Notes under the pieces: generated by a model | What the model saw: only the letters and a program-made list of their open reading frames with translations | Told to the model about the DNA's origin: nothing | Databases searched by the model: none | Shown here: positions 2,150 through 45,940 of the stretch, one piece after another | Position numbering within the stretch: the first letter of the stretch is position 1 | How the letters are laid out: every line of letters starts with the position of its first letter | Origin: an uncultured archaeon | GTDB lineage: Archaea; Iainarchaeota; Iainarchaeia; Iainarchaeales; Iainarchaeaceae | DNA: 64,000 bases | Assembly (NCBI GenBank): GCA_964577555.1 | Contig: CAZNZM010000002.1 | Coordinates: forward strand, 11,741-75,740 | Direction: 5' to 3' | Translations under genes and position numbers: made by a program

Positions 2150-2835
2150 TTTGCTTCATTGTAACTTATTTTTTTGGTTGCTCCTGAAAAGGAGCAATCA
2201 ACTCTTTGTTTTTTTGTGTTGGATTAAACCCTTGTTTTTCTTAATTTTTTGCAATTTTTTTTGAAATTTGTTTTATTTTTTTTGCTAGCCGTTTTTTTGT
2301 TTATTGTTTTTTTATTTTGAAAACTTGTTTTTTTTTGCAAGCTTTTTTTATCGTTTTTTTGGCATTTTTTTGTTTTTTTTTGAAGCCGATTTTTTTGTAT
2401 TTTATTTTTTGTTTGGTTTTGTTTTTGTGTGCCTAATTTTTTTTAGCCATTTATTTTTTTGTCTTTTTGCGAGTCGTTTTTTTGGTCTATTTATTTTTTT
2501 ATTTTTTTTACCAGGCATTTTTTTTGAAATTTGTTTTATTTTTTTTGTTTATTATTTTTTTGTTTTTTTAGTCAGTTTTTTTTGGCGTTTTTCTTTGTTT
2601 TTTTTTGCGAGCCGTTTTTTTTATTTTGCTTTTTTGTTGTTTGTTTTTTTTGGTGAGCCATTTTTTTGTCTTGTTTTTGCGAGCCAATTTTTTTTAGGCG
2701 TTTTTTTTGTTTTTTTAGCACAGTTTTTTTAGTTTTGATTTTTGTTTTTAGCCATTTTTTTGGGTTTTTAAGCATTTTTTTTAAGGTGTTTTTTTTTGCG
2801 GGTTTTCTTTTTTTAAGAGTTTTGGGGTGTTATTG
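2150..2835. repeat. Degenerate tandem array of the GCGAGCC(G/A)-oligo(T) repeat family. T-rich on the + strand, with an internal duplication of about 260 bp.
   Basis: Units seen directly include gctagccgttttttt, gcgagtcgttttttt, gcgagccgtttttttt, gtgagccattttttt and gcgagccaatttttttt. A 31-bp block, attttttttgaaatttgttttattttttttg, recurs at about 2259 and about 2519. Confidence 0.8.
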
Positions 2836-2839
2836 TTTG

Positions 2840-3457
2840 ATGGATTCAAAAGAAATTTACTTTTATCTTACCTTAGTTGTTGTAATTCTTATTGTGGTTT
2901 TTGGTGTTTATGTAGTGCTTAATATTGATTTTTCAGAGTATAAGCATGTTGTTGTCAAGCAGAATGTTGAGTTTGTATCTAACAGTGCAGAGCCTTCTTT
3001 AATAATTGATTCAATAAGGTCTGCTGATACTTTGGTATTTTCTCCTGCTTTTGTTGAAAGCGGGGAGGAAAATTCTTATATGGTTGAGTCTCTTACAATG
3101 TTTTCAACTGTTTTTTCCGCTAAAGGTAAGAATTTGATAGTTTTGGCAAGGGTTTTTGATTCTTCTGGCAATATGGTGTCTTGTAATTCCAATTTTGGGG
3201 ATTTGAAGAGGAACGAAGAGGTTTCTTTGGAGGATTGCAAAAAAATGTTGTCTGATAAGGATTCTGCAATTGTGCTTGTTCAATTGCCTTCTAATTCGCG
3301 AAAAGCAAGGGTTGTTTTGGAGGGCAAATCCGCTGAAATAATTTCTCCTGATATAAAGGCTGTTCCTTATGTTTCTTTTGCTTTGTTGGAAGCCATTTAT
3401 CCTGACTCTGCTAATATAATAAAAAATGTCAATTTGGCTTTGGCTGGAATGAAGTGA
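2840..3457 (+). CDS. Hypothetical membrane-anchored protein with an N-terminal TM helix.
   Basis: An ATG at 2840 is in frame with the track ORF 2666..3457. An N-terminal hydrophobic helix (LTLVVVILIVVFGVYVVL) is followed by a soluble domain. The upstream part of the track ORF is poly-T translation. Confidence 0.45.
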   Translation: MDSKEIYFYLTLVVVILIVVFGVYVVLNIDFSEYKHVVVKQNVEFVSNSAEPSLIIDSIRSADTLVFSPAFVESGEENSYMVESLTMFSTVFSAKGKNLIVLARVFDSSGNMVSCNSNFGDLKRNEEVSLEDCKKMLSDKDSAIVLVQLPSNSRKARVVLEGKSAEIISPDIKAVPYVSFALLEAIYPDSANIIKNVNLALAGMK

Positions 3458-3468
3458 GGCATTAAAAC

Positions 3469-4755
3469 ATGGTTGTTAGGCTTCGCACTATTTTAGTTTT
3501 TTTCATGATTTTTGCAATTGTTTATTTTATAGTAAAGCTTGTTTCTTTTTATTGGCTGGTTGTTTTTTTTAATATAATTCTTATTTTCATAAATAGTATT
3601 TTTTTGTTTGCGTATTTTGAAATCAAGAAGCCTAAAAAGTTTTTTTTTGATGAATGGCCTTCTGTTTCTGTAGTTATTCCTAATTATAATGGCGCAAAAA
3701 CTGTTAAAGCATGTATTGAGGCTGTTAAAAAGCTTGATTATCCTTTGAAAAAGGAAATAATTGTGGTTGATGATGGTTCAAAGGATGATTCGCTTGGCAT
3801 TATTTCAAAAATTAAGGGTATTAAAATAATTTCTTTTAAAAAGAATCGTGGAAAGTCGGCTGCGCTTAATGCGGGGATTAAAATTGCAAAAGGCGAGCTT
3901 GTTGTTACAATAGATTCTGATACTTATCCTTCTTCTGATTGTTTGATGAAAATGGTGCCTTATTTTGGCGAGGGTGTTGGGGCGGTTACTGGTTTTGTCA
4001 AGGCTCATAATGCGAGGAATTTTATTCAAAAAATCCAGGAGATAGAGTATTTGATTTCTTTTGGTTTTTTTCAGAGCGTGCTTTCTGACATAAACGCTAT
4101 TTTTGTTACTCCTGGGCCAATGAGCATTTATCGAAAAGATGTTTTGAGAAAAATAGGTGGCTTTGATGAAAATAATATTACTGAGGACATGGAGATAGCT
4201 TTTCGTTTGAGAAAGTATGGTTATAAAATCGTGGCTTGTACAGAAGCCTTTATTTTTACTGAAGTGCCTTGCACTATAAAGCAATTGTTTAAACAACGTG
4301 TGAGGTGGTATAGGGGGAAGTTTGCCAATACTTTGATTTACAAGAACATGCTTTTTAACCCTAAATATGGCGAATTTGGGCTTTTTACTTTTCCGTTTTC
4401 GGTGATAGTTGAGTGGTGTATTGTGTTGTTTATTTTTGTTTTTGTTGCTGGCAATATTGATGGTTTTGTCAATTATTTGTCTTATGTTTTTTCTTATTTG
4501 CAATTGTCCAATGTTAATGCTTTTGCTTTGTTGCCTGTTTTTACTGGTTTTAATCCTAACTTGTTTTTTTATATTATAGGCGGAGTTTTTTATTCTGTTT
4601 TTATATATTTGAGTCATTTGCTTGCAGGCGACAATTTAAGGCTTTCCAAGTTGCCTGAAATAACACTGTTTTTATTGGTTTATGGATTATTTATCCTTGT
4701 AGTCTTTTTTGTAGGTTTTTATAAGGAGATAAATAGTAGTGAAAAGATATGGTGA
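3469..4755 (+). CDS. Family 2 glycosyltransferase, processive type (cellulose/chitin-synthase-like), with C-terminal TM segments.
   Basis: It has VVIPNYNG...VVDDGS and TIDSDT (a DxD motif). QRVRWYRG matches the QxxRW signature of processive GT2 enzymes. There are multiple C-terminal hydrophobic helices. Confidence 0.75.
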   Translation: MVVRLRTILVFFMIFAIVYFIVKLVSFYWLVVFFNIILIFINSIFLFAYFEIKKPKKFFFDEWPSVSVVIPNYNGAKTVKACIEAVKKLDYPLKKEIIVVDDGSKDDSLGIISKIKGIKIISFKKNRGKSAALNAGIKIAKGELVVTIDSDTYPSSDCLMKMVPYFGEGVGAVTGFVKAHNARNFIQKIQEIEYLISFGFFQSVLSDINAIFVTPGPMSIYRKDVLRKIGGFDENNITEDMEIAFRLRKYGYKIVACTEAFIFTEVPCTIKQLFKQRVRWYRGKFANTLIYKNMLFNPKYGEFGLFTFPFSVIVEWCIVLFIFVFVAGNIDGFVNYLSYVFSYLQLSNVNAFALLPVFTGFNPNLFFYIIGGVFYSVFIYLSHLLAGDNLRLSKLPEITLFLLVYGLFILVVFFVGFYKEINSSEKIW

Positions 4756-5399
4756 ACAAGTATTTTTTGGCTATTTTGCTTACTTCCATATTGGTTTTGC
4801 TTGGTTTTTCTTTTACTCGTTGGGTTGACGAACAGCGTTTAATGGAGTTCAAAAATTCTTTTGACGAAGCTTATTTGGATTATCAAAGCGTTGAACAATT
4901 GTTGCTTTATGAATCGCTTTTTTCTGATCGGGAACATGTTTGTCCGGTTATTCGTGCAAGCATAGATTATCAAATTGGAAAGTTAAGGAAGTTGCTTTTT
5001 GAGCTTGAGGTTGCTCAAAAACAAAATGTTTTTTCAAATTTTGAGGTTCTTAAAAGAAAGTATCATTTTAACAATTTGCAATTGTATTTGCTTATTCAAA
5101 AGGCAACTGATTCTTGCGGTTATTCTGATTTGGAGCCTGTGCTTTTCTTTTATTCTGATAAAGAAAATTGTCCCGAGTGTGTTGTTCAAGGAAAGGTTTT
5201 GGATTCGCTTACTTCTAATTGTTCAAACTTAAGGGTTTTTGCTATTCCTTATGATTTTAATATTCCGCTTATTAGTGTTTTAAAAGAGAGAAATAGTGTT
5301 GTAAGGGTTCCAACTGTTATTGCTAATGATAAAAATTATGTTGGCTTGGTTTCCGGCAACAGGCTTTTGGAAGACGGACTTTATTGTCAGACGAATTAA
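4749..5399 (+). CDS. Membrane-anchored thioredoxin-like (thiol:disulfide oxidoreductase-type) protein.
   Basis: It has an N-terminal TM helix. A C-terminal CPEC (CxxC) motif is followed by a VPT cis-Pro-like motif. The start overlaps the GT2 stop (ATG 4749 versus TGA 4753-4755). Confidence 0.45.
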   Translation: MVNKYFLAILLTSILVLLGFSFTRWVDEQRLMEFKNSFDEAYLDYQSVEQLLLYESLFSDREHVCPVIRASIDYQIGKLRKLLFELEVAQKQNVFSNFEVLKRKYHFNNLQLYLLIQKATDSCGYSDLEPVLFFYSDKENCPECVVQGKVLDSLTSNCSNLRVFAIPYDFNIPLISVLKERNSVVRVPTVIANDKNYVGLVSGNRLLEDGLYCQTN

Positions 5400-5408
5400 C
5401 TTGTTTTT

Positions 5409-6683
5409 TTATTGTTTGTTTTTATTTATTGTATTTTTATCGTTTTTCATTAGTTCTCTTAGTATTGTGGTTGCGTAACCGCCTTTTTCCAGTTTGAATG
5501 AAATTTTCATTTTGAGTTTTTCTTGGTTTAGTTCGTCTTTTGTTATTTCAATTATTTTTGTTTGTTGTGGGTATATAAGCATTTTTTTTCTTGCTCCGCT
5601 GCAGCTTACTTGCATGAAGCTTTTTACTTTGAAGTCTTCTAATTTTATTTGTTCTTTTTCCAATATTTTTTTTTCAATTTCTCCGGCTTTGCCTTCTGCT
5701 AATTTTAGGTCGAATCCGAATAATGGTCCTGCCGCGTATTTTTCTTCTATAATAATGTCTCCTTCTATTGGTTCCAAACCCAATCCGGATTCTATTCTTT
5801 CGTTTATCACCATGTTGAATAAGTAGCTTTGGTACGCGTGTGTGAAAAGATAGATTAGGTGTTTTGGCATTTTTTGAAAAGCTCCAACAAAGTCATGAGG
5901 GTAGTTTGCAAGGTGATGCATTATGGTTCTTTCGTATCTGAATTTTTTTGGAAATTCGCGTAGTCCTTTTTTAAAGTCTTTGGTTTGTGCCAAGTTTTTT
6001 CTTGCTTCAAGTATTTCTTTTTCTTCTTCCGAACCATGGGTTAGGTATGTCATTATCGCTTTTTCAAAATTTCCTTTGATTAATTCTTTTCCAACCAAGT
6101 GTGTTACTTTTCTTATTCCGCCAAATCTTTGTTCTCCGAAGTAATTTGCCACTCCTTTTGTTTCCATTTCTGAAAAGCATTTTTTTGTTGTCTCTCTTAA
6201 TTCTTTTTCGTTCATTTCTATGTTTCTTATTGTAATTTCAAATTCGTTTCCTTGCAAGTCGCCTATTTGTATTGGCTTGTCTTTCCATTCAGGTTCTGTT
6301 AATGCAATGTATCTTGCTTTGAAATTTTTGAGCTTGTTTATATCAGGTTTCCAAATTGAAATTTTTTGGGATGTTATTGCTCGCCTGTCTTTTAAGCCAG
6401 CGTATCCTGTTCTTTTTGGCGAAATTCTGAGTATTCTGCCGATTCTTCTTATTGCTTCTGTTGTGTCCAAATTGAATTTTTCCATTGTGAGATGAAGGTA
6501 TTCTTTTTCGTTTTCAGGTATTTCAATTGGTTCTTGTGTTATTTCGTTGTTTTTTCCGAAGGCTTTTGTTTCAAGTTTTTTTCCTTCAAGCGTTATTTCT
6601 CTTACAATGAAATCGGAGATTCTTTTTTTTATTAAACCGCCTATCCCGTTTGTTGAAGTAGTGTAGTGTTTTATTTCAACCAT
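5409..6683 (-). CDS. truD: tRNA pseudouridine(13) synthase TruD/Pus7.
   Basis: The TruD-family motifs are present: ISDFIVREI, GYAGLKDRRAITSQ and NYFGEQRFG. Length is 424 aa. Confidence 0.8.
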   Translation of the reverse strand: MVEIKHYTTSTNGIGGLIKKRISDFIVREITLEGKKLETKAFGKNNEITQEPIEIPENEKEYLHLTMEKFNLDTTEAIRRIGRILRISPKRTGYAGLKDRRAITSQKISIWKPDINKLKNFKARYIALTEPEWKDKPIQIGDLQGNEFEITIRNIEMNEKELRETTKKCFSEMETKGVANYFGEQRFGGIRKVTHLVGKELIKGNFEKAIMTYLTHGSEEEKEILEARKNLAQTKDFKKGLREFPKKFRYERTIMHHLANYPHDFVGAFQKMPKHLIYLFTHAYQSYLFNMVINERIESGLGLEPIEGDIIIEEKYAAGPLFGFDLKLAEGKAGEIEKKILEKEQIKLEDFKVKSFMQVSCSGARKKMLIYPQQTKIIEITKDELNQEKLKMKISFKLEKGGYATTILRELMKNDKNTINKNKQ

Positions 6684-6702
6684 AAAAAATCATTTTTAAT
6701 TT

Positions 6703-7917
6703 TTATATTTTGTACCTTAAAATGGCTCCCAATCCGCCGAATCCTTTGAAAAATTGGTCTCCTTCTGGTGTTTCTGTTGAGATTGCCGCTACTTTTGTGT
6801 TTGTGTTTGCCGCCAATTCTTCTATATAGTCAATGTATTCCATTTCTTCTATTATTTCAATTTGTTCTGTTTCTTTGAATTTTTTTTCTTTGTCTACAAT
6901 GTATTTTATTCCGTTTGTTTGGTTTTCTTTGATTTTGTATACTTCCCATTCTATTCCTTCGCTTACCAATACTAGGCTTGCTTGTCCCAATTCAAGAGCT
7001 TTGAGTACTTCTTTTTCGCCGTATGTTGCTAATTCGTCTTTTGCAAGTTTTTCAAAAAAATCTGCTATTAGTTTTCTTTCTTTCATGAGGTCTGTGTCTT
7101 TTAGTACAGTTTCGCTTTTTTGTACTAGTTCTCTTATTCCTCCTTCGTCAGTGTATGATGCGTCAAGCATTGCAATTATTTTGTTTTTGAGCCTGTGGTC
7201 TAGCAAGTCTTTTTCCACAAAAAAGTTTTTTGACATTCCGGGGCCGCCTATTATTAATCCTTTGAATTTTTCTCCGTATGGCAGGAATGCAGCATTTGCT
7301 TTTTCGCTTATTCTTTTATAGAATTCTTGTTCTGCTTCTTCTCTGAGTCTTTCAAATCTTTGAGAGCTTTGTCCTCCGGCCCTTGATTTTCCGCTGTATC
7401 CTGAAGTGAATTTTCCTATTATTTCATATCTTTTGCCTATTAATGTCGCTATTGTTGCTTCGCTTTTGTCAATTGTTATTAATCCGTAAATGTTTTGTGG
7501 TTTTGACATTTCTTTTAATGGTTCAAGGTAGAATTTTGAGTCGCACCAGTATAATTTTGTTCTGAGGTCTTTTATTGGTTTTATTGTGAAAAGCCGGATG
7601 TCTGTTTTGCCTTCTGTTTCGGAAATGTTGCCGGCAAAAATCGCTATTCCGTTTTCAGGTATTTTGAAGTCTATTTGTTTGAGAAAATTTATTATTTTTC
7701 TTAATGCGGCTTGGACGTTTTTTCTTGTTGTCGGGCTTTTAATGTTTGAGCTTTGGCTTATTTCTTCTGTGAGTTGTCCCATTACTCCGCTTCTGTCTGC
7801 TTTGTTTGGAATATATACGCTTATAAGTTCTGTTCCTCTTCCTTGGTATTCTGCCATTTTTTTTAGTTTTTTTTTGAATACTATTTCTTCGCTTTGTGTT
7901 GTTTCATATTCTGGCAT
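6703..7917 (-). CDS. prf1: Peptide chain release factor aRF1 (eRF1 family).
   Basis: It has the NIKS motif (SSNIKSPTT) and the GGQ motif (RAGGQSSQRF). Length is 404 aa. Confidence 0.85.
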   Translation of the reverse strand: MPEYETTQSEEIVFKKKLKKMAEYQGRGTELISVYIPNKADRSGVMGQLTEEISQSSNIKSPTTRKNVQAALRKIINFLKQIDFKIPENGIAIFAGNISETEGKTDIRLFTIKPIKDLRTKLYWCDSKFYLEPLKEMSKPQNIYGLITIDKSEATIATLIGKRYEIIGKFTSGYSGKSRAGGQSSQRFERLREEAEQEFYKRISEKANAAFLPYGEKFKGLIIGGPGMSKNFFVEKDLLDHRLKNKIIAMLDASYTDEGGIRELVQKSETVLKDTDLMKERKLIADFFEKLAKDELATYGEKEVLKALELGQASLVLVSEGIEWEVYKIKENQTNGIKYIVDKEKKFKETEQIEIIEEMEYIDYIEELAANTNTKVAAISTETPEGDQFFKGFGGLGAILRYKI

Positions 7918-8024
7918 ATTGTTACCTTTTTATGAAAATCAGTGATTTTTCTAAGAATTATTGGTTTGCATCATTTTAATTCATTTATTGCATAAAGCTT
8001 AAATACCCAGGACGCTGTTGTCGG

Positions 8025-8175
8025 CGTGTTTCATGTTTTCATGTTTTTTTTGTTTTGGCCCGCTTTTTTTTGGGTTGTTGTTTGTTTTTTATATTTTTTT
8101 TGCAACTCATTTTTTTTTGAGTTTGTTTTTTGCAAGCCAAGTTTTTTTGAATTTATTTGTTTTTTCTTGGCTTTT
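8025..8175. repeat. GCGAGCC-oligo(T) family repeat array. T-rich on the + strand, lying between divergent genes.
   Basis: Units include ggcccgctttttttt and ttgcaagccaagttttttt, embedded in T-runs. Confidence 0.65.
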
Positions 8176-8178
8176 AGT

Positions 8179-8192
8179 AAAAGTTATATATT
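8179..8192 (+). promoter_or_regulatory. Archaeal TATA-box-like element upstream of pyrH.
   Basis: aagttatatatt lies about 30 nt upstream of the ATG at 8217, consistent with a leaderless transcript. Confidence 0.4.
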
Positions 8193-8216
8193 CTTTATTC
8201 TTAATTTTTAGGAATT

Positions 8217-9125
8217 ATGTTCGACATGTTTCAGGAGGGTGGCGAGACTTCTTCGCCTGATGCGGGTTATTTGCAGTCTTCAAATGTTTTTGTTGTTTCA
8301 ATTGGTGGCAGTATTTTGTTTGAAGAGAATGAGCCAAGCCCTGAAAAGTTCAAGGCTATTGTTGATGTTGTAACCCAATTGCATCGTTCTGGAAAGAAAA
8401 TTGTTTTGGTTGTTGGAGGTGGAAAGGTTGCAAGGCTTTATTCTGGTGTTGCAGGTTCTTTGAATTTGAATAAGTTTGAACAGGACTTGGTTGGCATAAA
8501 AGTAACGAGGCTTAATGCTTCTCTTTTGGCTGCTGCAACGCCTGACGCTCATAAAAAAGTCCTTGAAGAAATTGTTGATGCCAAGAATGTTTTGGACAAT
8601 GGGAAAATTCCTGTTTTTGGAGGCTTGGTTCCTTTTTTTACCACTGATTCTGTTGCTGCTCTTCTTGCTGAATTTCTTAATGGGGTTTTTGTGAATTTGA
8701 CTGATGTTGATGGAATTTATGATTCCAATCCAAAGGAAAATCCTGATGCCGTCATGTTTTCTGAAATATCATATTCTCGCCTTGTTTCTCTTGCAATTGC
8801 TGCAGGTTCTGCGCCGGGGCAGAATGTTGTTGTTGATATTGCGTGTGCAATGATTTTGAAAAGAAGCAAAATTCCTGCTGTTTTTTTGAATGGAAACAAT
8901 TTGGACAATTTTATGGCTTATATTAATGGCCAGTCGTTTGTTGGTACTGTTGTGAGAGATATTCCTGAAGATGTTTCAAATTCCAATTTGTCGGATGTCG
9001 GTGGTTTTCCAGATTCCGTTGTAGTGGGAAAAAAGAAGCCTAGGAAAAGGCGTTCAAAAAAACCTGTTGTCGGAAAATCCAAAGACGATTATTCACACCC
9101 TGACCCTTATCAAATTGATTTTTGA
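8217..9125 (+). CDS. pyrH: Uridylate (UMP) kinase, archaeal amino-acid-kinase family, with a basic C-terminal tail.
   Basis: VVSIGGSILF and VLVVGGGKVARLY match the aa-kinase fold. The C-terminal roughly 40 aa is KKKPRKRRSKKP-rich and is not part of the canonical enzyme. Confidence 0.7.
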   Translation: MFDMFQEGGETSSPDAGYLQSSNVFVVSIGGSILFEENEPSPEKFKAIVDVVTQLHRSGKKIVLVVGGGKVARLYSGVAGSLNLNKFEQDLVGIKVTRLNASLLAAATPDAHKKVLEEIVDAKNVLDNGKIPVFGGLVPFFTTDSVAALLAEFLNGVFVNLTDVDGIYDSNPKENPDAVMFSEISYSRLVSLAIAAGSAPGQNVVVDIACAMILKRSKIPAVFLNGNNLDNFMAYINGQSFVGTVVRDIPEDVSNSNLSDVGGFPDSVVVGKKKPRKRRSKKPVVGKSKDDYSHPDPYQIDF

Positions 9126-9143
9126 TTTTTTGGAAAGTTTTTT

Positions 9144-10154
9144 TTAGTGCATGAATTCGTCTGGTTTCCAGTCTTCCCATTTTTTTATTCCTATTGCGAT
9201 CAGGCATTCTGTGGGGTTTATTATTAGCATTTTCCAGTTTTCTGCGTCGTCTAAAACTATTCTGTTGCATGCCGTGTTTACTAGGCAGTCAAATCCTGTT
9301 CCAAGCATGTAATTTTCATTTACTAAATCCATTTCAAGCAGGTATGCTTTTTTTCCTGTTTTTTCAATTTGTTTTTTCAGTTCCAGTGCTTTTTCTTTTT
9401 GTCTTTGTCCTGATTTTATTGAAACGATTATTCCGAATGTTTTGGCTTGGGATGCCATGGCTATTGCGGCAAATCTTTTTCTCATTAATTTGTCTTTGTT
9501 TTTTTCGCTTATTTCTTCAATTGTTTTTGTAATTGGATTCACTACTATTACTGGTTTTTTTGTGTTGAACACTAACCCCATTGGGTGGAAGTAGCCGTCT
9601 CCAAAGTAGACGTTTGCTTGTATGTTTGGTTGTGCTTCTTCCACAACGGTATAATTGCATCCTAATATTTGTCCTTCGGATGCTATTCTTTGGCTGCCTT
9701 TTCCAATGTATGTTTTTATTCCGTTTCTGAATAGTATTTCTCTTATTTTTGGGATGTGTGTGTTGTATTGTGCGTTTGCTACCAGTGTAATTGTTTCTAT
9801 TTTTCTTTTTTTTAGTTCTTTTAGCAGTTTTTCTGTGCTTTCTTTTATTTCTTCTTCGCTCAGCTTGTATTCCAATGGCAGATAAAGTATTTTTTCGCTT
9901 TTATGAATTGGACTGTGTCCTATGTGTATTATTGCATCAGCATTAAGCACTTTCATGTCGTGCAATGGGAGGTCGCATGCTCCGTAGCATGGATCCATTT
10001 TTATGAAAATGTTTTCGCAGACTGTTGATAAGGTGTCTGCTATGAATTTGGTTTTTTGTTTCAAGCCTTCAGGTATTTGTATTATTGCTGTTTGTGCTTT
10101 TTTTTCCTTTAAAAATTTTTTTGCAGGTTCAAGGTCTATTATTAATTCTGCCAT
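9144..10154 (-). CDS. dph2: 2-(3-amino-3-carboxypropyl)histidine synthase (diphthamide biosynthesis Dph2).
   Basis: Length is 336 aa. Three spaced Cys residues (DPCYGACD, ILGCNYT, VNTACNRIV) are positioned as in the archaeal Dph2 radical-SAM-like fold. Confidence 0.7.
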   Translation of the reverse strand: MAELIIDLEPAKKFLKEKKAQTAIIQIPEGLKQKTKFIADTLSTVCENIFIKMDPCYGACDLPLHDMKVLNADAIIHIGHSPIHKSEKILYLPLEYKLSEEEIKESTEKLLKELKKRKIETITLVANAQYNTHIPKIREILFRNGIKTYIGKGSQRIASEGQILGCNYTVVEEAQPNIQANVYFGDGYFHPMGLVFNTKKPVIVVNPITKTIEEISEKNKDKLMRKRFAAIAMASQAKTFGIIVSIKSGQRQKEKALELKKQIEKTGKKAYLLEMDLVNENYMLGTGFDCLVNTACNRIVLDDAENWKMLIINPTECLIAIGIKKWEDWKPDEFMH

Positions 10155-10254
10155 AGTATTGTTTGTGTGTTAGAAAGTTGTTAATACTTTATGTATTTGG
10201 CGATTTTTTTTGTTTGATGTGTTTATGTTTTATTAATAAATCAGTTGTTTTTTT

Positions 10255-37884: not shown

Positions 37885-38084
37885 AAAGAAAAATTCAAGG
37901 AAATTTAATTTAAATATGATTGGAAAGCAAAAAAATTCCTAAATTAATACTTTTTGCCAGATAATGGCTTGCGTGAAAATGTTATCTTTTTTTTGCGAGC
38001 AGTTTTTCAATCAAGTATTTTATTTTTTTGTACGACGTTGTTAAATAATTATTTTTTATTTAGTTGTGTATTTGAGTTATATTA

Positions 38085-38708: not shown

Positions 38709-38710
38709 TT

Positions 38711-39538
38711 TTACAAGAAAATAATTTTAAGTATTATAAATGTTGCAATCATGAATGTTGATTGTACTGGTAGTGCTGGCAAGGGTGTTTTCTTTTTTGA
38801 ACTCGTATCTATTGTTGTCATTAGTCCAAGCATGGATGCAAAAATTATTGTTCCTGAAAATAGTAATGCGTATTCTGTTTGGTAATTTTTTTTTGCTTCT
38901 GCGAGAATTGATACTGCGAATGTCAATGGTATTACTAAATCTCCTGTGCCTAGTTCGAATTTTTTTTCTTTTGTCGGTATTGCAAATGTAAAAGCCAGGT
39001 TTTTGTCTATAATTCCTTTTGCAAGCGCCACCATGTGTTTTGTTTTGAAAACCGCTATATAATCGTATATTGCAAGCAAAATTATGAATATTGCTATTGC
39101 GTCTGCCCCAATGCTTGCTCCTATTAGTGCTCCTGCTCCTGCAGTGGCAATTATGCTTGTTATGTTTCTCAAAAAAATATTTTTTGCGAATACCAGCCTT
39201 GCTGTTATTATTCCTATTCCTGCCCCTAATATTAAAAATTCTGGGGGGTTGTAAGGCACTAAAATTATGATAATAGAACTGAATATTGCAATGCTTTCAA
39301 TTATTTTGAATATTATGTATGAAAACAAGTTTGGCATTAATTTGAGCATTAAAAGTATTATTCCTGTTATTATTAACATCCAAATTAGTAATGCTATGAC
39401 ATTAACCAAAGAGTTTGGGTTTTCTTCTATTATTATTGCTCTTATGTTGTTTTTTGTCAGGAAATTGCCTGCGCTTAAGCCAAGTATCATTGTGGTTGCG
39501 AAAATTAGTGATAATTTGTAGTTTATTTCTTTGTTCAT
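38711..39538 (-). CDS. Presenilin / signal-peptide-peptidase-like intramembrane aspartyl protease (A22 family) homolog.
   Basis: A YD motif (IYDYIAVF), a GxGD motif (LGTGDLVIP) and a C-terminal PAL motif (PLPALP) sit in consecutive TM helices. It is a polytopic protein of 275 aa. Confidence 0.6.
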   Translation of the reverse strand: MNKEINYKLSLIFATTMILGLSAGNFLTKNNIRAIIIEENPNSLVNVIALLIWMLIITGIILLMLKLMPNLFSYIIFKIIESIAIFSSIIIILVPYNPPEFLILGAGIGIITARLVFAKNIFLRNITSIIATAGAGALIGASIGADAIAIFIILLAIYDYIAVFKTKHMVALAKGIIDKNLAFTFAIPTKEKKFELGTGDLVIPLTFAVSILAEAKKNYQTEYALLFSGTIIFASMLGLMTTIDTSSKKKTPLPALPVQSTFMIATFIILKIIFL

Positions 39539-39623
39539 GTTTCATTTTTAGACAACAATTATTTAATTGTTTTCCTTGGCGGTTTGTTGATTATGTATTT
39601 GTTAGTTTTGTAGTTTGTTTTTT

Positions 39624-40286
39624 TTATTCGAATATTTTTCTTCCAATTCTTATTACTGTTGCTCCTTCTTCTATTGCTATTTCATAATCGTTGCTCATTC
39701 CCATGCTGAGGTGTTTTAAATTAAGGTTTTCTTTTATGTCGCATAATTTTTGGAAATATGGCCTTGCTTCTTCGGGGTTTTTGACCAATGGTGCTATTGT
39801 CATGAGGCCTATGAATTTTACGTTGTTGTATGGCAGGTTTTTCATTGTTGTAAGCATTGATTCCACTTCTTCTGGTTTCATTCCGTATTTTTGCGGTTCG
39901 TTTGATGTATTAACTTGCAGAAAAATGTTTTGTATTTTTTCGATGTCGAGGCTTGCGTAATGTATTTTTCTTAGCAAGTCAAGGCTGTCAACCGATTGTA
40001 TGTAATCGCACATTTGAACTGCTTTTTTTACTTTGTTGCTTTGCAAGTGTCCTATAAAGTGTATGTCTGTTTTGAGTTCTTTTAAGTCAGGGTATTTTTC
40101 TTCGAGTTCTTGTATGGTGCTTTCGCCTATGTCTGTAATGCCGTGTGAAACAGCTTCTTTTATTTGGTTTATTTCTCTTTCTTTTGTTGCCGCCACTATT
40201 GTTATTTCTTCTGGTTTTCTTCTGACTTTATTGCATGCCTTGGCAATTGTTTTTCTTATTTCTTCAATGTTTTGTTTTATGCTCAT
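39624..40286 (-). CDS. yggS: YggS/PLPBP-family pyridoxal-phosphate homeostasis protein.
   Basis: It has the alanine-racemase N-terminal-like TIM barrel with a Lys in VAATKER, and GHLQSNK. Confidence 0.75.
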   Translation of the reverse strand: MSIKQNIEEIRKTIAKACNKVRRKPEEITIVAATKEREINQIKEAVSHGITDIGESTIQELEEKYPDLKELKTDIHFIGHLQSNKVKKAVQMCDYIQSVDSLDLLRKIHYASLDIEKIQNIFLQVNTSNEPQKYGMKPEEVESMLTTMKNLPYNNVKFIGLMTIAPLVKNPEEARPYFQKLCDIKENLNLKHLSMGMSNDYEIAIEEGATVIRIGRKIFE

Positions 40287-40299
40287 GTTTATTATTTTA

Positions 40300-40640
40300 T
40301 TGCGTCATGTTTTTATTATTCTTGGCTTAATTGTTTTTTTTGTCTTTGTTTTGTTTTTTTTTTCAAGCCGTTTTTTTGTTTGTTAGTTTTTTTAGTTATT
40401 TTTTTGTTTTTTTTATGAGCCTTTTTATTTTTTGAATTTTGTTTTTTTTGTTTTTTTTTGGCGAGCCTTTTTTTGTCATTTTTTTTTGTAAGTCATTTTT
40501 TTCTTGTTTTTTTTTGTGGATTGTTTTTTTTATAAGCCAATTATTTTTTTTGTTTTTTTGGCGAGCGTTTTTTTTGGTATTTTTTTTGAAATTTTGTTTT
40601 TTTTTCTTTTTGGTTTTTATTTTGTCTCGCCTTTTTTGCC
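40300..40640. repeat. GCGAGCC-oligo(T) family repeat array. It contains a 50-bp block identical to 29701..29750.
   Basis: tcaagccgtttttttg, atgagcctttttattttttgaattttg, tggcgagcctttttttg, ataagccaattatttttttt and tggcgagcgttttttttgg. Confidence 0.8.
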
Positions 40641-41030
40641 TACTACTCGTATTAGCGAGCCCCATTTTATGTATTGTACTTCGTTTCCGCTTGCAAGCCC
40701 CGTAACGTCTTTCGGTTTTTCAATTTCGTTTATTGAATAATCTTTTGTGTCCATTATTTGTATTCTGTCTCCCATTATTGCTACTACTTGTGCGTCGCCT
40801 TTTTCAATTATGGGAATTTCAACATCGGCATCCACCGGTTTGAGAAGTGTTTTTTTGACGTCTCTGAATATTCCCATTCCTGTGGCCCTGATTTTTGCCG
40901 CTCCGTGTTTTCCCGGTTTTGATTTTTCAACGCCTTTTATTTGACAGGGTTCTCCTTCAATTAGCGCGTATGATCCTTCTTTAAGGTCTCCTGCGTATCC
41001 GAATTTTTTTTCTCCTTCAGTTATTACCAT
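40617..41030 (-). CDS. eif5a: Translation initiation factor 5A (aIF-5A, hypusine-containing).
   Basis: It has the hypusination loop SKPGKHGAAK and SH3-like plus OB domains. Length is 137 aa. Confidence 0.85.
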   Translation of the reverse strand: MVITEGEKKFGYAGDLKEGSYALIEGEPCQIKGVEKSKPGKHGAAKIRATGMGIFRDVKKTLLKPVDADVEIPIIEKGDAQVVAIMGDRIQIMDTKDYSINEIEKPKDVTGLASGNEVQYIKWGSLIRVVGKKGETK

Positions 41031-41175
41031 TTTTTTTCACCTGCATTGAAATCGCCTTAGTTAATTTTAAATAGGTTTGCAAAACCCCTTGTATTTGTCT
41101 TTTAATTGGTTTTTAGGCTGTTTTTTTGCCCTTGTGTGAGTTTTTTAATGGTATTTCGGTATTACTTATATTGTT

Positions 41176-41628
41176 ATGTTCAGGTTTGTTAAGAGAATAT
41201 TTGATAAAGGCAATGATTGTCGTAATCTTGCCGTTTTTATTGATGGCCCAAATATTTTGAGGAAGGATTTGGGTGTTAGTCTTGCCGATATTAAGAAAAA
41301 TCTTGAAAAATTTGGAAAGGTGAAGATTGGCAGGGTTTTTATGAATCAATATGCTTCTGAAAAACTTGTTGAAGCTGTTGTGAATCATGGTTTTGAGTCT
41401 GTGATTACTGTTGGTGATGTTGATGTTTCAATGGTTGCTGATGCTGTTGAAGCAGTATTTAATCCGCAGATTCACACTATTGTTTTTGTGACGAGGGATT
41501 CGGATTTTTTGCCTGCTATTATAAAAGCCAAGCGTGAGGGAAAGGAAACAATTGTTATGCTTACTGAAGAGGCCAGTTCTGTTTCTCTTAAAAATAATGC
41601 TGATCATGTTATTTTGCTTGGGAAGTGA
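41176..41628 (+). CDS. NYN-domain (LabA/DUF88-like, PIN-fold) putative ribonuclease.
   Basis: The acidic residues are arranged as in NYN domains: LAVFIDGPN, VGDVDVSMVADA and VFVTRDSDFLP. Confidence 0.6.
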   Translation: MFRFVKRIFDKGNDCRNLAVFIDGPNILRKDLGVSLADIKKNLEKFGKVKIGRVFMNQYASEKLVEAVVNHGFESVITVGDVDVSMVADAVEAVFNPQIHTIVFVTRDSDFLPAIIKAKREGKETIVMLTEEASSVSLKNNADHVILLGK

Positions 41629-41634
41629 TTTTGC

Positions 41635-42129
41635 ATGAATCTTCCTGTAGGTGATATAATTGGAAGGGGTATTAATTTAAAGGAAGTGGATATTCGTAAG
41701 CTTATTGAAGGTTTTTATGACAAGGGTTTTTCTGGTTATCTTGTTGCTTCTCTTTATGGTTTTGATTCGGTTGAAGAGGGCGTATTGCTTTTCAAGGATG
41801 GTTTGCTTATTGCCGCTATTTACGAGTATGAATTTTATGGAATAACTATTTTTGGCGATGTTGCTTTGCCACATATATTCAATTCTTTTGCTGCTGATTT
41901 TATTGTGGCTGATATAGTGTCTCTTTCTAATCAGCAAATTGATCTTGTTACTGCTTTTAATGATAAAGCTAAGTTGAATAAGGTTTTGCAAAAAGGCGAT
42001 GTTGGAAGGTTAATGGTCAAAGCGTTTTCTAAAGATCTTGCCAAATCTGTATTGTCCAATTTGGTAAGTTCTGCAGAGGACAAGGCTGAGATTTTTAAGA
42101 AGCTCGGTTTAGCTGGTTTGGGTGAGTGA
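41635..42129 (+). CDS. Hypothetical protein, possibly a Roadblock-like fold, translationally coupled to neighbours.
   Basis: It is 164 aa. The start lies 7 bp after the NYN stop, and the stop overlaps the next start. Confidence 0.35.
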   Translation: MNLPVGDIIGRGINLKEVDIRKLIEGFYDKGFSGYLVASLYGFDSVEEGVLLFKDGLLIAAIYEYEFYGITIFGDVALPHIFNSFAADFIVADIVSLSNQQIDLVTAFNDKAKLNKVLQKGDVGRLMVKAFSKDLAKSVLSNLVSSAEDKAEIFKKLGLAGLGE

Positions 42130-42590
42130 TTGTGTTTAGGGGTGCCAAGCTGTTTTTGAAAAAGTTTGCTGAAAAAATTCTTGATGTTGATGATACTTCT
42201 AAGCCAGAGTCCCAGTTGCGTTTGTTGGAAGGTTATTCTGAGCGTTTCAAGTTTGAGTATGATTTGTCAGACATTGATAATTTTTTGAAGGTGTTGAAGA
42301 AGAAGCATCTTGTTGATGAAATTGTTGTTTCGACTTTGCATGGCAGTGCTATTGGTTCTACTAATGGCGATTCTGTTTCTCAGGCTGTTTCTAGTGCAGC
42401 GCTTTTCAATTATGTAAAGTCTGAGCTTCCTAAAAGCGAGGCTTTGATTGTAAAGTCTAATGGTTGGCACATGATTTTTAATTATGGAAAAAAACTTTAT
42501 ATAGTAAAGGCTTCTAGTAATCTTAATATGGTTGAGTTGAAAGCATTGGCCCGCGAAATAGAGTCTTTTCTTGAAAAGAATGCTATTTAA
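42126..42590 (+). CDS. Roadblock/LC7-domain protein.
   Basis: EIVVSTLHGSAIGSTNGDS...ALIVKSNGWHMIFNYGKKLYIVKASSNLNMVELK matches the Roadblock alpha-beta core pattern. Confidence 0.5.
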   Translation: MIVFRGAKLFLKKFAEKILDVDDTSKPESQLRLLEGYSERFKFEYDLSDIDNFLKVLKKKHLVDEIVVSTLHGSAIGSTNGDSVSQAVSSAALFNYVKSELPKSEALIVKSNGWHMIFNYGKKLYIVKASSNLNMVELKALAREIESFLEKNAI

Positions 42591-42624
42591 TAGTTGCTTT
42601 TACATAACGTTTTAATAATCTAAA

Positions 42625-42636
42625 TTCTATAAATAC
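42625..42636 (+). promoter_or_regulatory. TATA-box-like element upstream of minD.
   Basis: ttctataaatac lies about 25 nt upstream of the candidate GTG start at 42655. Confidence 0.4.
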
Positions 42637-42654
42637 TTTGGCTTGGTGTTTTTT

Positions 42655-43452
42655 GTGGTAAGGGTAATTTCGGTAATTTCAGGCAAAGGCGGGGTGGGAA
42701 AGACCACTATTGCAGCCAATCTTGGCGTGGCTCTTGCAAAGAGAGGGCTTAAAGTGCTTCTCATTGATGCGGATATTGCCATGGCTAATACTTCTTTGCT
42801 TTTGAATATGCAGAATTCTCCGATTACTTTGCATGATGTTCTTTTGGGCGAGGCTTCTGTGCAGGACGCTATTTATGATGGTCCTGCTGGTTTGAAATTT
42901 ATGCCTTCTGGTCTTAGTCTTGAAAATTATCGCAGGGTTGATTCTGAAAGGTTGCAGTCAATAATTGATTCAGTGAGGGTTCAATTTGATTTTATAATTT
43001 TGGATTGTGCGGCTGGAATTGAAAAGAATGTGCTTGCCGCGATTTCAGCTTCTGATGAAGTTCTTTTGGTTGCTATGCCTACTAGTCCAAGCATTGCTGA
43101 TGTTTTAAAAGCAAAGATTACTGCCCAGCGTCTTGGTGCAAAGCCGATTGGAACTATTTTGAATTTTGTTCGTGATGAAAGGGGCGAGGTTCAAAAGGAT
43201 GAAGTAATGAAGATTTTGGAGCTTCCTGTGCTTGGTTCTGTGCCTTATGACGACGAAGTGAGGCGCAGTTTTATGCAGGAAAATATGATGCCTTTTATTT
43301 TGAGGTCTCCTTCCTGTCCTGCTGCTGTTGCATTGCAAAAGATTGCTGCAAGGCTTGCTGGTTTGCCAATGCTGCAAGAAGAGAAGAAAACGGGTTTTTT
43401 GAGCGGTTTTTTAAATAAATTGTTTTCTATTTTTAAAGGTAAGCCAAAGTGA
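42655..43452 (+). CDS. minD: MinD/ParA-family P-loop ATPase (deviant Walker A).
   Basis: It has SGKGGVGKTT and LLIDADIAMANTS. The start is set at GTG 42655. The track ORF starts at TTG 42643. Confidence 0.8.
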   Translation: MVRVISVISGKGGVGKTTIAANLGVALAKRGLKVLLIDADIAMANTSLLLNMQNSPITLHDVLLGEASVQDAIYDGPAGLKFMPSGLSLENYRRVDSERLQSIIDSVRVQFDFIILDCAAGIEKNVLAAISASDEVLLVAMPTSPSIADVLKAKITAQRLGAKPIGTILNFVRDERGEVQKDEVMKILELPVLGSVPYDDEVRRSFMQENMMPFILRSPSCPAAVALQKIAARLAGLPMLQEEKKTGFLSGFLNKLFSIFKGKPK

Positions 43453-43467
43453 TGGGGGGTTTTTAGT

Positions 43468-43686
43468 ATGAGTGGAAGGCCATTTGATCTTTTGAGTGCG
43501 GCAATAGGCAAGGATGTTATTGTTGAATGCAAGGGGAATGTTTCTTACCGTGGCACTCTTAAAGCATTTGACGTGCATATGAATGTTGTTCTTGAGAATG
43601 CTGAAAAGTTTGAGAATTCCGACCCAAAAAATAAGTATGGCAAGCTTCTTATTCGTGGCGAGAATGTTATACTTATTAGTCCTTGA
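43468..43686 (+). CDS. Sm-like archaeal protein (SmAP/LSm).
   Basis: At 72 aa, it has the Sm1/Sm2 motifs (VIVECKGNVSYRGTLKAFDVHMNVVL, IRGENVILI). Confidence 0.8.
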   Translation: MSGRPFDLLSAAIGKDVIVECKGNVSYRGTLKAFDVHMNVVLENAEKFENSDPKNKYGKLLIRGENVILISP

Positions 43687-43691
43687 TTTTT

Positions 43692-43785
43692 GGGCCCTTA
43701 GTGTAGAGGCTAACACGCGTGCATGGCATTAAGTTTGAACTTACCAATGTGCACGATACGCCGGGTTCGAGTCCCGGAGGGTCCA
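43692..43785 (+). tRNA. tRNA-Ala (anticodon GGC) with a 21-nt intron at the canonical 37/38 position; no encoded CCA.
   Basis: The acceptor pair GGGCCCT/AGGGTCC has G3:U70. The D-stem GTGT/ACAC is perfect. The anticodon stem CGTGC/GCACG is separated by 28 nt, namely the loop ATGGCA-[intron ttaagtttgaacttaccaatg]-T. The T-arm is CCGGG-TTCGAGT-CCCGG. Confidence 0.8.
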
Positions 43786-43931
43786 TTTTGCATTTTTTTT
43801 AAAGTTTGGTGCTAAAAATATTGGTTTTAAGCAATCGCTTGTTTTTCCGGATTTTTAAGTTGTTTTACAATAAAAAAATCCATTTTTTTTGGCACCCCTC
43901 AATAATTAATAATAGTATTTCGTAAAATAGT

Positions 43932-45620
43932 ATGACTTCCATGTTGTTTCCTGCCAATAAAAAGAAAATTCTTAAGGAATCGATTACTAGGTTGTTGCAA
44001 TTAGGCATACCTGACTTGGATATTATTCAAAATCTTCAAAGTGTTGGAGTTCCTGAATCTCTTGCAAAGTCTATTTTAAAGGAAACTAAGGAAGAGTTGG
44101 CTGGAAAACAATCCAAACAATCTTTAAAGCCTGTTTCTGAAATTAAAAATTTGGTTGCTTCTGGTGAAAAACAAGTTGAAGACAAACCCGTTTCAAAAAG
44201 CGATTCCGAATCAGCAGTTTCTGGTGATGTTGAATCTGAAGAAGAATTGATTGACGAGTTTTATGATGATAGGGAAAAAGAAGATGATTCTAATTTGCCC
44301 GATTCTCTCAGCGAAATAAAAAAGTCAATAGTTGAAGATAAGGTTGAAACGGATTCCAGTTCTGGGAAAAAAAATTCTTCTTTGGAAATTGAGACTTCTG
44401 TTTCTCACGAGGCAAGCGATGTTTCTTCTCTTTGGGAGAAAGGCATACTTGCCACTGTTGATGCAAAGTTAACCGAAATGGAGCGAATAAGAGATGAATT
44501 GGACAAGGTTCTGGACCAAAAAATTTCAGAGAAAATGAAGGTTGAAATTAAGAAAGTGGAAGCTGTTCTTGAATCTGAACGCGCTCTTTTTTACAACAAA
44601 ATAGACAGCCATCTTGAATCAAAGGCCGAAGAATTAAAGAATGTGATTGCTGCACAATCCAAGCAGTTGCAGGATGTTAATGCCAAGGCTGCTGATATTC
44701 TTTCCAAGGTCGGAGTTGAAAAAAAGTTTAATGCGGAGCTTTTGAATAGTTTGAATGAAAAAATTGCCAGTATTGAGACTTTGCGTAGCCAAATGCTTTC
44801 TCAATTGAATCAATCCCAACTTGAACAGAGTTTGAAGTTCAAAAATTTTATGGATGAATCTGCAAAAAGGCGTGAGGAACTTGAGGCGAGAATTTCGAGG
44901 GCTTTGCAACTTGAATCAAAGATAGCTGAAGGGCTTATTGAGGACGCCAAGAATCGTATTGAGGAGATGAGGCTTGACAAGGATGCAGAGCTTTCAAAGA
45001 AGATTAACGAGAAAGTTAAGGAGCTTGATGATATTATTGCGAAGATTGATCCGAAGGGAATTGTTGAAACCGGCAAGCGCATTAAAATTCTTGATGAACA
45101 AGTAACCAAAAAAATAAGCGAGATTGACGCATTGTTGGAAAAGAAGTTTAATGATGCTGATCGTAAGATTGAGGAAAGCATTTCTGAAATGCAGGCCGCT
45201 TTGGAGAAAGCAGAGGATGAGAGGTTTGCAAAATTGAAGGAGGAGTATGCTCAAGCAATGGATGAGATGTTTAGCCAAGAGCTTGAAATTTGGGATAAAA
45301 AAATAAAATCCAAAGAGGAAGAAATAGAAAAGTTGAAGGAGCAGATTGATATTGAAAAATTTAATGCTTCTCTTGAGTCGCTTGATATTTTTAAGGATCA
45401 GTTTGTGAATACTATAAGCAAAAGCATTGATGATTATAACAGGGCTAAAAAGGAGCTTGCTGAAAAAGTTATTGCAAGGGACAAGGCGATTAATGATTAT
45501 TTGAAGAGAATTGATTCAAAGTTGGCTGAGTTGAGCGAGTTTCAGCAAAAGTTTTCAAAAAAGTTTGCCGAGATGTTGGACAAGACGGAAAGTTCGGTTG
45601 AGAAAAAACAAAAAAAGTAG
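43932..45620 (+). CDS. Long coiled-coil protein (filament- or scaffold-like) with an N-terminal globular domain and an acidic Ser/Glu linker.
   Basis: It is 562 aa. Continuous heptad-type E/K/L-rich sequence runs from about residue 150 to the C-terminus. No Walker or ABC motifs are present. Confidence 0.5.
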   Translation: MTSMLFPANKKKILKESITRLLQLGIPDLDIIQNLQSVGVPESLAKSILKETKEELAGKQSKQSLKPVSEIKNLVASGEKQVEDKPVSKSDSESAVSGDVESEEELIDEFYDDREKEDDSNLPDSLSEIKKSIVEDKVETDSSSGKKNSSLEIETSVSHEASDVSSLWEKGILATVDAKLTEMERIRDELDKVLDQKISEKMKVEIKKVEAVLESERALFYNKIDSHLESKAEELKNVIAAQSKQLQDVNAKAADILSKVGVEKKFNAELLNSLNEKIASIETLRSQMLSQLNQSQLEQSLKFKNFMDESAKRREELEARISRALQLESKIAEGLIEDAKNRIEEMRLDKDAELSKKINEKVKELDDIIAKIDPKGIVETGKRIKILDEQVTKKISEIDALLEKKFNDADRKIEESISEMQAALEKAEDERFAKLKEEYAQAMDEMFSQELEIWDKKIKSKEEEIEKLKEQIDIEKFNASLESLDIFKDQFVNTISKSIDDYNRAKKELAEKVIARDKAINDYLKRIDSKLAELSEFQQKFSKKFAEMLDKTESSVEKKQKK

Positions 45621-45624
45621 TTTT

Positions 45625-45940
45625 TTTTGTTTTTGTGAGTTGTTTTTTTAGGCGTTTTATTTTTTTTGTTTGGTGTTTTTTTTTGAATTTGCTTTTTTTG
45701 TGTTGTTTTTTTTGTGATTTTATTTTTTTTAATTCCAAATTGTTTTGTCTTTTTTTGTGGCTTGGATTTTTTGTTTGAATTTTTGTTTTTTTTGCGAGCC
45801 GAATTTTTTTTATTTTTGAAATTTAATTTGTTTTTTTTGTTTGATCTGATTTTTTTGCTGGCATATTTAGTTTTTTTTCTATTTTTATTTTTTTCTTTTT
45901 AATGTTTGTTTTGTTTTTTTTTGTTTTACCAAAATTATTA
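45625..45940. repeat. GCGAGCC-oligo(T) family repeat array.
   Basis: ttgcgagccgaatttttttt plus T-rich units. Confidence 0.65.

Follow-up and report, generated by a model that had tools for sequence, protein, structure and literature searches.

Tandem T-tract arrays and extreme strand asymmetry in a chromosomal segment of a Diapherotrites archaeon

The intergenic spacers of a 64,000-nucleotide stretch of DNA (contig CAZNZM010000002.1, positions 11,741 to 75,740; hereafter the window) from a small uncultured Diapherotrites (DPANN) archaeon hold arrays of T-tracts that alternate with short islands, some of which carry the GC-rich core GCGAGCC. All arrays are T-rich on the given (+) strand. They were first described from the letters of the window alone (the sequence-only reading) and are compared here with known systems, with the composition of the strand that carries them and with related genomes.

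Replication-associated strand skew is known from Borrelia, many bacteria, some archaea including Candidatus Forterrea (PMC5905446) and animal mitochondria. As in those genomes, G exceeds C and T exceeds A on one strand of the window, and the bias is found at synonymous sites in both gene orientations and persists through local inversions. It differs in its magnitude, with an AT skew of -0.63 to -0.69 at four-fold degenerate sites, and in that the AT component far exceeds the GC component. The corresponding T:A ratio of 4-5:1 is nearer to mitochondrial values than to those of typical prokaryotic chromosomes.

Archaeal oligo-U terminators, intrinsic or assisted by aCPSF1/FttA, are hairpin-less T-runs of the non-template strand that follow directly upon the stop codon, often serially (PMC8716108), and the T-runs after + strand genes of the window resemble them. 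The tracts described here, however, fill 100-700 bp, lie on one DNA strand regardless of gene direction and are tolerated in + strand open reading frames (ORFs). Minisatellites and homopolymer-rich spacers, such as the poly(dA:dT) of Plasmodium and Dictyostelium, share with the arrays their degenerate head-to-tail units, their rapid gain, loss and turnover and a composition at mutational equilibrium. The window arrays differ from these in a single-strand polarity kept over at least 77 kb, a bounded class of T7-9 runs, a GC core common to unlinked arrays and their setting in a compact DPANN genome.

FtsK-orienting polar sequences (KOPS), Chi sites and other architecture-imparting sequences are likewise short oligomers whose orientation is skewed parallel to the presumed direction of replication; the oligomer of the window, in contrast, is clustered in tandem, decaying, dispensable per locus, confined to a narrow clade, not dispersed in genes and without a reader among the window proteins. 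Repetitive extragenic palindromes and the bacterial interspersed mosaic elements built from them (REP/BIME), miniature inverted-repeat transposable elements (MITEs) and the palindrome-associated transposable elements (PATEs) derived from IS200/IS605 are also short intergenic repeats that occupy many spacers and vary in presence between close lineages, but the arrays have no palindromes, hairpins, inverted termini or defined boundaries.

The arrays work like a combination of three of these systems, namely replication-type strand skew, minisatellite dynamics and archaeal oligo-T terminators. No earlier description of extreme skew or of T-tract arrays in Diapherotrites or DPANN archaea was found in the literature searched. 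The explanation favoured here, with a probability of about 0.6, is that the arrays are lineage-specific minisatellites of a T8-GCGAGCCG unit with rapid turnover, and that they are co-oriented as a side-effect of a strand asymmetry that is extreme and probably linked to replication. A lineage-specific miniature repeat expanding by slippage had been listed by the sequence-only reading among its alternatives, and it is this alternative that the evidence favours. More surprising than the repeat itself are the strand asymmetry and the resulting lack of oligo-T terminators for half of the genes.

Anatomy of the arrays and composition of the strand

The window was extended with contigs from metagenomes of the Joint Genome Institute (JGI) that are 100% identical to it, giving ~77 kb in window coordinates -3954 to 73208. 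Matches of 100% were two JGI contigs (sample 3300043177) and Logan contigs of SRR12686701. Relatives used for comparison were L110 (GCA_038889715.1; MCM 79% identical, GC content 33%), the sister lineages L112 (~90% identity) and L115-L117 (91% identity, three samples), the outgroup L118 (GCA_037441005.1) and Candidatus Iainarchaeum andersonii (AQRS01000043; L114).

Fourteen array spacers (3380 bp) contain 158 runs of seven or more T (T7+) on the + strand and no run of seven or more A (A7+); the counts for the whole window are 328 and 40. The strictly co-oriented repeat family reported from the sequence alone is therefore real, and the Phe-rich ORFs overlying it (e.g. 2304-2732) are artefacts, as had been supposed. 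Arrays are found in tandem, convergent and divergent spacers (Table 1).

The elementary unit is a T8 run followed by an 8-nt island, GCGAGCCG. Successive T-runs are most often 8 nt apart, and their starts most often 16-17 bp, which corresponds to a T7-9 run and an island of ~8 nt. Tandem Repeats Finder (TRF) reports degenerate head-to-tail periods of 40-54 bp with 74-79% matches, which are higher-order repeats. The unit had been described as a GC core with 7-9 T, reiterated every 30-50 bp. Its T7-9 run stands and periods of 40-54 bp do exist, but the GC core precedes only a minority of the T-runs and the elementary spacing is shorter.

Copies of the core have only T-runs in common as flanks, in the order T7-9, optional G, GCGAGCC, G or A, T7-9. 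A search for GCGAGCCRTTTTTTT with at most two mismatches gave 15 matches, all 15 on the + strand, where 1.17 were expected and none of 100 shuffles reached 15. A count of the motif on both strands, which the sequence-only reading had put forward as a check, yielded 11 exact copies of GCGAGCC on the + strand of the ~77 kb and one on the - strand. Nine of the ten + strand copies within the window lie inside intergenic T-tract arrays, often several per array; from the composition of the arrays ~0.0006 copies would be expected by chance (by arithmetic). This composition favours the reverse complement on the + strand, so that the orientation bias of 11:1 exceeds what base composition predicts and speaks for common descent of the cores. 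In addition, a stretch of ~230 bp is common, at 80% identity, to the arrays at 29.7 and 40.4 kb.

Variants of the core are mainly transitions (GTGAGCC, GCGAGTC, GCAAGCC). The 8-nt islands begin with G in 28 of 32 cases and have C or T where the core has C. Those without an intact core, when compared with a transition-decayed GCGAGCCG, matched at 5.74 positions against 4.89 after shuffling of positions, a value reached by 0.05% of the shuffles, and most islands look like cores decayed by transitions.

Beyond matches made of A and T only, no hairpins or terminal inverted repeats were found in the arrays, array RNA folded no better than shuffled sequences (z = 0.12), and covariance models of Rfam run over the window returned only tRNAs above threshold. 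Among genome collections, TTTTGCGAGCCGTTTTTT gave 96 single-copy matches in unrelated, mostly bacterial genomes, with no T-run bias and none of them matching the window, apparently by chance; the four matches of TTTTTTTGCGAGCCGTTTTTTT in metagenomes were all unrelated.

The polarity is not limited to the arrays. At four-fold degenerate sites T exceeds A on the + strand in 52 of 52 genes between 2.8 and 55.6 kb, whichever their orientation. Genes of the + strand, with T-ending codons, have T 0.623 and A 0.142 at these sites (AT skew -0.63, GC skew +0.09), and genes of the - strand, with A-ending codons, have T 0.635 and A 0.117 when read on the + strand (AT skew -0.69, GC skew +0.36), which gives a T:A ratio of ~4.4-5.4. 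The resulting four-fold composition (T 0.62-0.64, A 0.12-0.14, G 0.13-0.17, C 0.08-0.11) is essentially that of the 14 array spacers (T 0.645, A 0.128, G 0.157, C 0.070).

Array polarity belongs to the strand and not to the repeat, and is common to every weakly constrained site. The repeats are uniformly oriented because the whole strand is extremely T-rich, synonymous positions included, and a special orientation signal is unnecessary for their co-orientation. For a T-rich repeat, copies that all point one way can be read as an orientation signal only after comparison with the skew of neutral sites. The sequence-only reading was right that the polarity parallels a chromosome-scale asymmetry (G>C and T>A on the + strand) of the kind usually tied to the direction of replication.

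Comparison with L110 showed that the MCM gene and the eIF-2beta/DUF424/eIF-1A cluster are inverted there relative to the window (30760-34649 against L110 10001-13941) and the flanking genes are not. Most syntenic genes of L110 have the same orientation relative to the skew as in the window, and the inverted genes fully carry the skew of their new strand; the skew thus follows the strand and not the genes. A switch of polarity considered at L110 1-1800 was rejected, as both of the supposed + strand ORFs are shadow frames of a PEP synthase gene on the opposite strand. L110 and L118 have the same extreme skew in genes of both orientations, with values of +0.34 to +0.85 and 33 A7+ against 3 T7+ runs in L118. 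The skew is mild in Candidatus Iainarchaeum andersonii (+0.28 and +0.33), and relatives of ~50% GC show little.

Between window positions 29912-36972 and L112, 643 differences were counted, with roughly symmetric transitions (CT 181, AG 207). G<->T differences numbered 106 against 32 A<->C on the + strand, a 3.3-fold excess in counts that are unpolarised and do not thereby identify the causal mutation. This excess hints at strand-asymmetric transversions.

Since the skew is independent of the direction of transcription, a replication-type cause is the simplest, and we infer that the asymmetry is linked to replication. Indirect support comes from a complete Diapherotrites genome in which the cumulative GC skew follows one origin-to-terminus pattern adjacent to cdc6 (PMC5905446). 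With T outnumbering A 4-5:1 at synonymous sites of one strand, irrespective of gene direction, the window is an unusually clean natural case for the study of strand-specific mutation. Reduced DPANN genomes may lack repair functions, which could bear on the asymmetry.

The skew fades from ~52 kb and is weak between 56 and 66.9 kb, where the four-fold AT skew is -0.1 to -0.25 and T7+ and A7+ runs are balanced. Beyond 66.9 kb the AT skew is again -0.65 to -0.76, T7+ to A7+ runs stand at 11:0 in the 66-68 kb bin, and skew and T-tract spacers continue outside the window at 66.9-73 kb. The position at 55.3 kb, taken by the sequence-only reading for the end of the polar domain, is instead the edge of a low-skew island of ~10 kb, and the earlier statement that no copy follows after ~46 kb holds inside the window but not beyond it, where a further array lies (Table 1). 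Genes at 56-66.9 kb encode RibBA (fused DHBP synthase / GTP cyclohydrolase II), EamA, V4R-domain, KaiC-like ATPase, PcrB and small HTH proteins. The island was probably acquired recently and still lacks the composition of the strand; having no arrays, it provides an internal control.

The S-layer-like gene at the left (-877 to 2143, of which 41-2143 lie in the window; 1007 aa, GC 43%, with a faint match to the Pfam family S_layer_C) escapes the skew as well, with a four-fold AT skew of -0.04. Two sites after it, 2135-2164 and 2174-2201, combine a hairpin with a T-run and resemble bacterial-style terminators; the scan for sigma-70 promoters and hairpin terminators is uninformative for archaea.

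Turnover of the arrays between relatives

Where the window has the 497-bp array of 23474-23970 with its three exact cores, the L115-L117 lineage has a spacer of 3 bp (alignment A1), and the junctions in this alignment are plain T-runs. L118 has 159 bp of T-tracts without the core in the same spacer between the Metallophos and CoA ligase genes. Before Topo VI-A, L115-L117 carry an array of ~390 bp with the cores CGAGCCAAG, GGCGAGCCG and GTGAGCCA, which has the same polarity as that of the window and is not colinear with it. The spacer downstream of RIO1 in L112 consists of near-perfect tandem units of ~109 bp containing GCGAGCCAAG-T8, again with the polarity of the window and unalignable to the window array; it lies at a contig end, and the perfection of its copies could partly be an effect of assembly.

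At ~90% genome identity the orthologous arrays at 25.8 kb and 29.6 kb thus cannot be aligned, and core and polarity are retained in the sister lineages. A search of related genomes for the same unit, also suggested by the sequence-only reading, recovered the core in L112 and L115-L117 but not in L110 and L118, both of which share the skew. Judged from these sequences, the core is restricted to the window and its sister lineages, and the skew and the T-tract spacers are older. Within ~10% divergence arrays expand, give way to others and can disappear, and at least one of them is individually dispensable. Strand-biased mutation together with slippage could accordingly build or erase hundreds of bp of spacer over such a distance. 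Small indels in a T-tract region distinguish L115 from L116/L117.

The proposed mechanism would begin with a founding unit of ~16-17 bp, made up of a T7-9 run and then GCGAGCCG, that was multiplied in tandem, plausibly by slippage or by unequal exchange between T-runs. Array DNA would be copied from spacer to spacer, and whole arrays would occasionally disappear. The units would erode, chiefly by C-to-T and G-to-A changes, toward the neutral composition of the strand, and the mutational asymmetry of that strand (T:A ~4-5:1, G>C) would set both the orientation of the arrays and the synonymous sites of all genes. The + strand is composed as leading strands usually are, and would accordingly be the one exposed as template of the lagging strand. 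One-directional termination or insulation, for the + strand only, would be a secondary effect.

Explanations weighed against each other

Several observations weigh against the favoured explanation. All 77 kb are of one polarity with no switch within them, which leaves the link to replication indirect. The three assemblies of the window population are 100% identical and show no length polymorphism among them. The exact core has been retained in two lineages despite the turnover of the arrays, which could reflect selection on the core rather than repeated copying. An array of 497 bp with three exact cores is not derivable from a 3-bp spacer by local slippage, so that a step of copying or insertion is required there. 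Most divergent (promoter-only) spacers have small arrays or none, arrays being enriched where a spacer holds the 3' end of a gene, and a purely neutral model covers this enrichment only by way of promoter constraint.

The lengths of the T-runs belong with these points. Spacers hold 29 runs of 6, 67 of 7, 71 of 8, 19 of 9 and 2 of 10, with none above 10, a bimodal and not a geometric distribution; mononucleotide shuffles give 21.7, 13.3 and 8.4 runs of lengths 7, 8 and 9 and ~8.6 runs of 11 or more, in a smooth geometric tail. Composition alone accounts neither for the peak at 7-8 nor for the ceiling at 10, and both could result from selection for tracts of a defined length. Coding sequence on both strands is likewise depleted of runs of 9-10 or more relative to synonymous shuffles, and because of this the upper limit looks like a genome-wide property of homopolymers and not a feature of the arrays.

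Selected arrays of multiple U-tracts, acting as terminators or insulators for + strand genes (intrinsic or assisted by aCPSF1/FttA) and blocking antisense or divergent + transcription into - strand genes, are the alternative that survives best, though we consider it unlikely. Archaeal terminators consist of U4-7 tracts, and in Methanococcus two or more tracts improve both the binding of aCPSF1 and termination (PMC8716108). Where a + strand gene is the last of its transcription unit, its stop is followed within ~50 nt (at 1-50 nt) by a T6-8 tract, the largest arrays lie in spacers with 3' ends and most divergent spacers have small ones or none, and the narrow T7-9 class fits a functional tract length. 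Against this, - strand genes are followed by these arrays too, and there the RNA would have A-tracts. The sequence after - strand genes (e.g. 23971-25350, 26148-27236 and 29939-30712) is A-rich, with almost never a T5+ run within 60 nt of the stop and, for nearly all of these genes, a longest T-run of 1-5. Within + ORFs the sense strand does not avoid T7+ runs either (26, where synonymous shuffles give 20.4 +/- 2.8), lengths of 300-700 bp go far beyond what termination needs, and in the sister lineage the convergent Metallophos / CoA ligase pair copes with a spacer of 3 bp.

Oligo-T in the non-template strand being an archaeal termination signal, the arrays probably do terminate or insulate transcription of the + strand, and of that strand only. 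That they exist for the sake of termination is nevertheless argued against by the tolerance of T7+ runs in + ORFs, the excess length, the arrays after - strand genes and the lack of one array in the sister lineage. The earlier observation that the repeats cannot all be terminators of their neighbours is borne out, with arrays in every orientation class. Only the genes of one strand keep an oligo-T termination signal, which raises the question of how the other half terminate.

A broader form of selection is doubtful and less likely than the last. T8-GCGAGCCG would here be a selected, replication-oriented cis element, either a polar terminator or insulator that acts only on transcription codirectional with the fork, or a site at which priming or loading on the T-rich lagging-strand template is preferred; with the asymmetry of this clade so extreme, oligo-U terminators would survive on one strand only, and genes of the other strand would terminate without U-tracts.

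Slightly less credit still is given to a functional replichore-polar motif, in which GCGAGCC with its T-tract would be read by a translocase, recombination or replication factor in the manner of KOPS or Chi, or would mark a priming or loading site on the lagging-strand template. The 11:1 bias of the core is not predicted by composition, the core is kept in sister lineages through array turnover, and for at least 77 kb its polarity runs with the G>C, T>A asymmetry. KOPS and Chi sites are scattered and lie mostly within genes, but the core is confined to intergenic tandem arrays, with one of its ten + strand copies in the window found outside them. Most copies are decaying, a whole array is dispensable in the sister lineage, L110 and L118 lack the core despite the shared skew, and no FtsK- or RecBCD-type reader occurs among the window proteins; to our knowledge such readers are not typical of archaea. 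The KOPS- or Chi-like role which the sequence-only reading had preferred is not upheld, the more so as the polarity is general to four-fold sites.

A structural role, with poly(dA:dT) tracts excluding archaeal histones or bending the DNA and the polarity a mutational by-product, appears very improbable. Dense homopolymeric A:T tracts are indeed specifically intergenic and the strand bias would independently explain their polarity, but the spacing of the T-tracts peaks at 16-17 bp with no helical phasing of 10-11 bp as in curved DNA, the arrays are weakest in divergent promoter spacers, where nucleosome-free regions matter most, and one array site has a 3-bp spacer in the sister lineage.

Hardly any weight is given to a non-autonomous mobile element (a MITE or the relic of an IS200/IS605-type single-strand transposon inserted in fork orientation), for which the 497 bp with three exact cores against 3 bp in the sister lineage, the ~230 bp shared by the arrays at 29.7 and 40.4 kb and the known orientation bias of single-strand transposons relative to replication could be cited, but terminal inverted repeats, subterminal hairpins, defined ends and target-site duplications are all absent from the arrays; the copies vary in length and internal order as tandem arrays do, no transposase is encoded among the window proteins, and the outgroup L118 already has a T-tract spacer at the site, so that loss in the sister lineage is equally possible.

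Features of the window and further observations

Table 1. Positions of the arrays, isolated units and composition domains in window coordinates (negative values and values above 64,000 lie outside the window)
Feature	Position	Strand	Remarks
Largest T-tract array, ~675 bp	2160..2835	+	between S-layer-like gene (ends 2143) and 205-aa gene (starts 2840)
Cores of the 2160..2835 array	GCTAGCC 2284, GCGAGTC 2469, GCGAGCC 2607 and 2679, GTGAGCC 2653	+	TRF periods 40 and 54 bp
Short array, divergent spacer eRF1 (-) / amino-acid kinase gene (+)	8040..8175	+	core GCAAGCC 8132
Array between diphthamide-synthesis gene (-) and ribosomal protein L16/L10e (-)	10200..10306	+	core TCGAGCC 10269
Array between two - strand genes	11150..11364	+	core GCGAGCC 11167
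Short array between two - strand genes	13415..13500	+	core GCAAGCC 13460
T-tract array between tRNA-Cys (-) and H+-pyrophosphatase gene (-)	17955..18121	+	no intact core
Short T-tract stretch, divergent spacer	20225..20330	+	
497-bp array between convergent Metallophos (+) and CoA ligase (-)	23474..23970	+	GCGAGCC 23613, 23744, 23898
318-bp array between 144-aa membrane-protein gene (+) and Topo VI-A (-)	25830..26147	+	GCAAGCC 25862, GCGAGCC 26119
Array between KH-domain gene (-) and RIO1 (-)	29575..29938	+	GTGAGCC 29700, GCGAGTC 29746
Isolated single unit (T8-GCGAGCA-T), divergent spacer	37985..38030	+	
Array between Ala_racemase_N-family gene (-) and IF5A (-)	40330..40640	+	GCGAGCC 40461, GCGAGCG 40561
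One or two isolated T-tract units, divergent spacer	41115..41150	+	
Array between 562-aa protein gene (+) and PEP synthase (+)	45621..45935	+	GCGAGCC 45794
Island GTGAGTTG in the 45621..45935 array	45643	+	core with all three C replaced by T
Array with GGCGAGCCA core, left contig end, outside window	-3954 to -3818		
T-tract array outside window, JGI contig	71.9-72.15 kb		
Domain of extreme strand asymmetry	2840..55642	.	52/52 genes
Low-skew island	56000..64000, on to ~66.9 kb	.	no arrays

The source organism is a Diapherotrites archaeon. The nearest homologues of its MCM are labelled Candidatus Diapherotrites or Iainarchaeum (DPANN archaea), and the housekeeping genes of the window are archaeal (eRF1, diphthamide-synthesis protein, topoisomerase VI A and B, MCM, RIO1, eIF-1A, eIF-2beta, IF5A, MetRS, H+-pyrophosphatase and PEP synthase). 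Many MCM genes of Diapherotrites carry an intein with a LAGLIDADG homing endonuclease, giving proteins of ~1170-1240 aa; that of the window is without an intein.

Several short-read contigs terminate within T-rich spacers, as is to be expected of repeats, and arrays of this kind fragment short-read assemblies. The JGI assembly of sample 3300043177 is broken inside the PEP synthase gene, at window ~46609-46640, where Ga0484859_0000717 and _0000928 overlap by ~31 nt according to coordinate arithmetic and are joined in the window. The skew runs uninterrupted over this join, with no sign of a chimera.

A tRNA gene at 43692-43785 (+), missed by ARAGORN and found by Rfam (45.9 bits), has an intron of ~24 nt in the anticodon loop and follows closely downstream of a small Sm/LSM-like ORF. 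Two adjacent paralogues of HAD-family hydrolases lie at 20963-21610 and 21600-22253 and have in common, close to the start of each, a stretch of 46 nt at 93% identity (repeat D20), suggestive of a tandem gene duplication.

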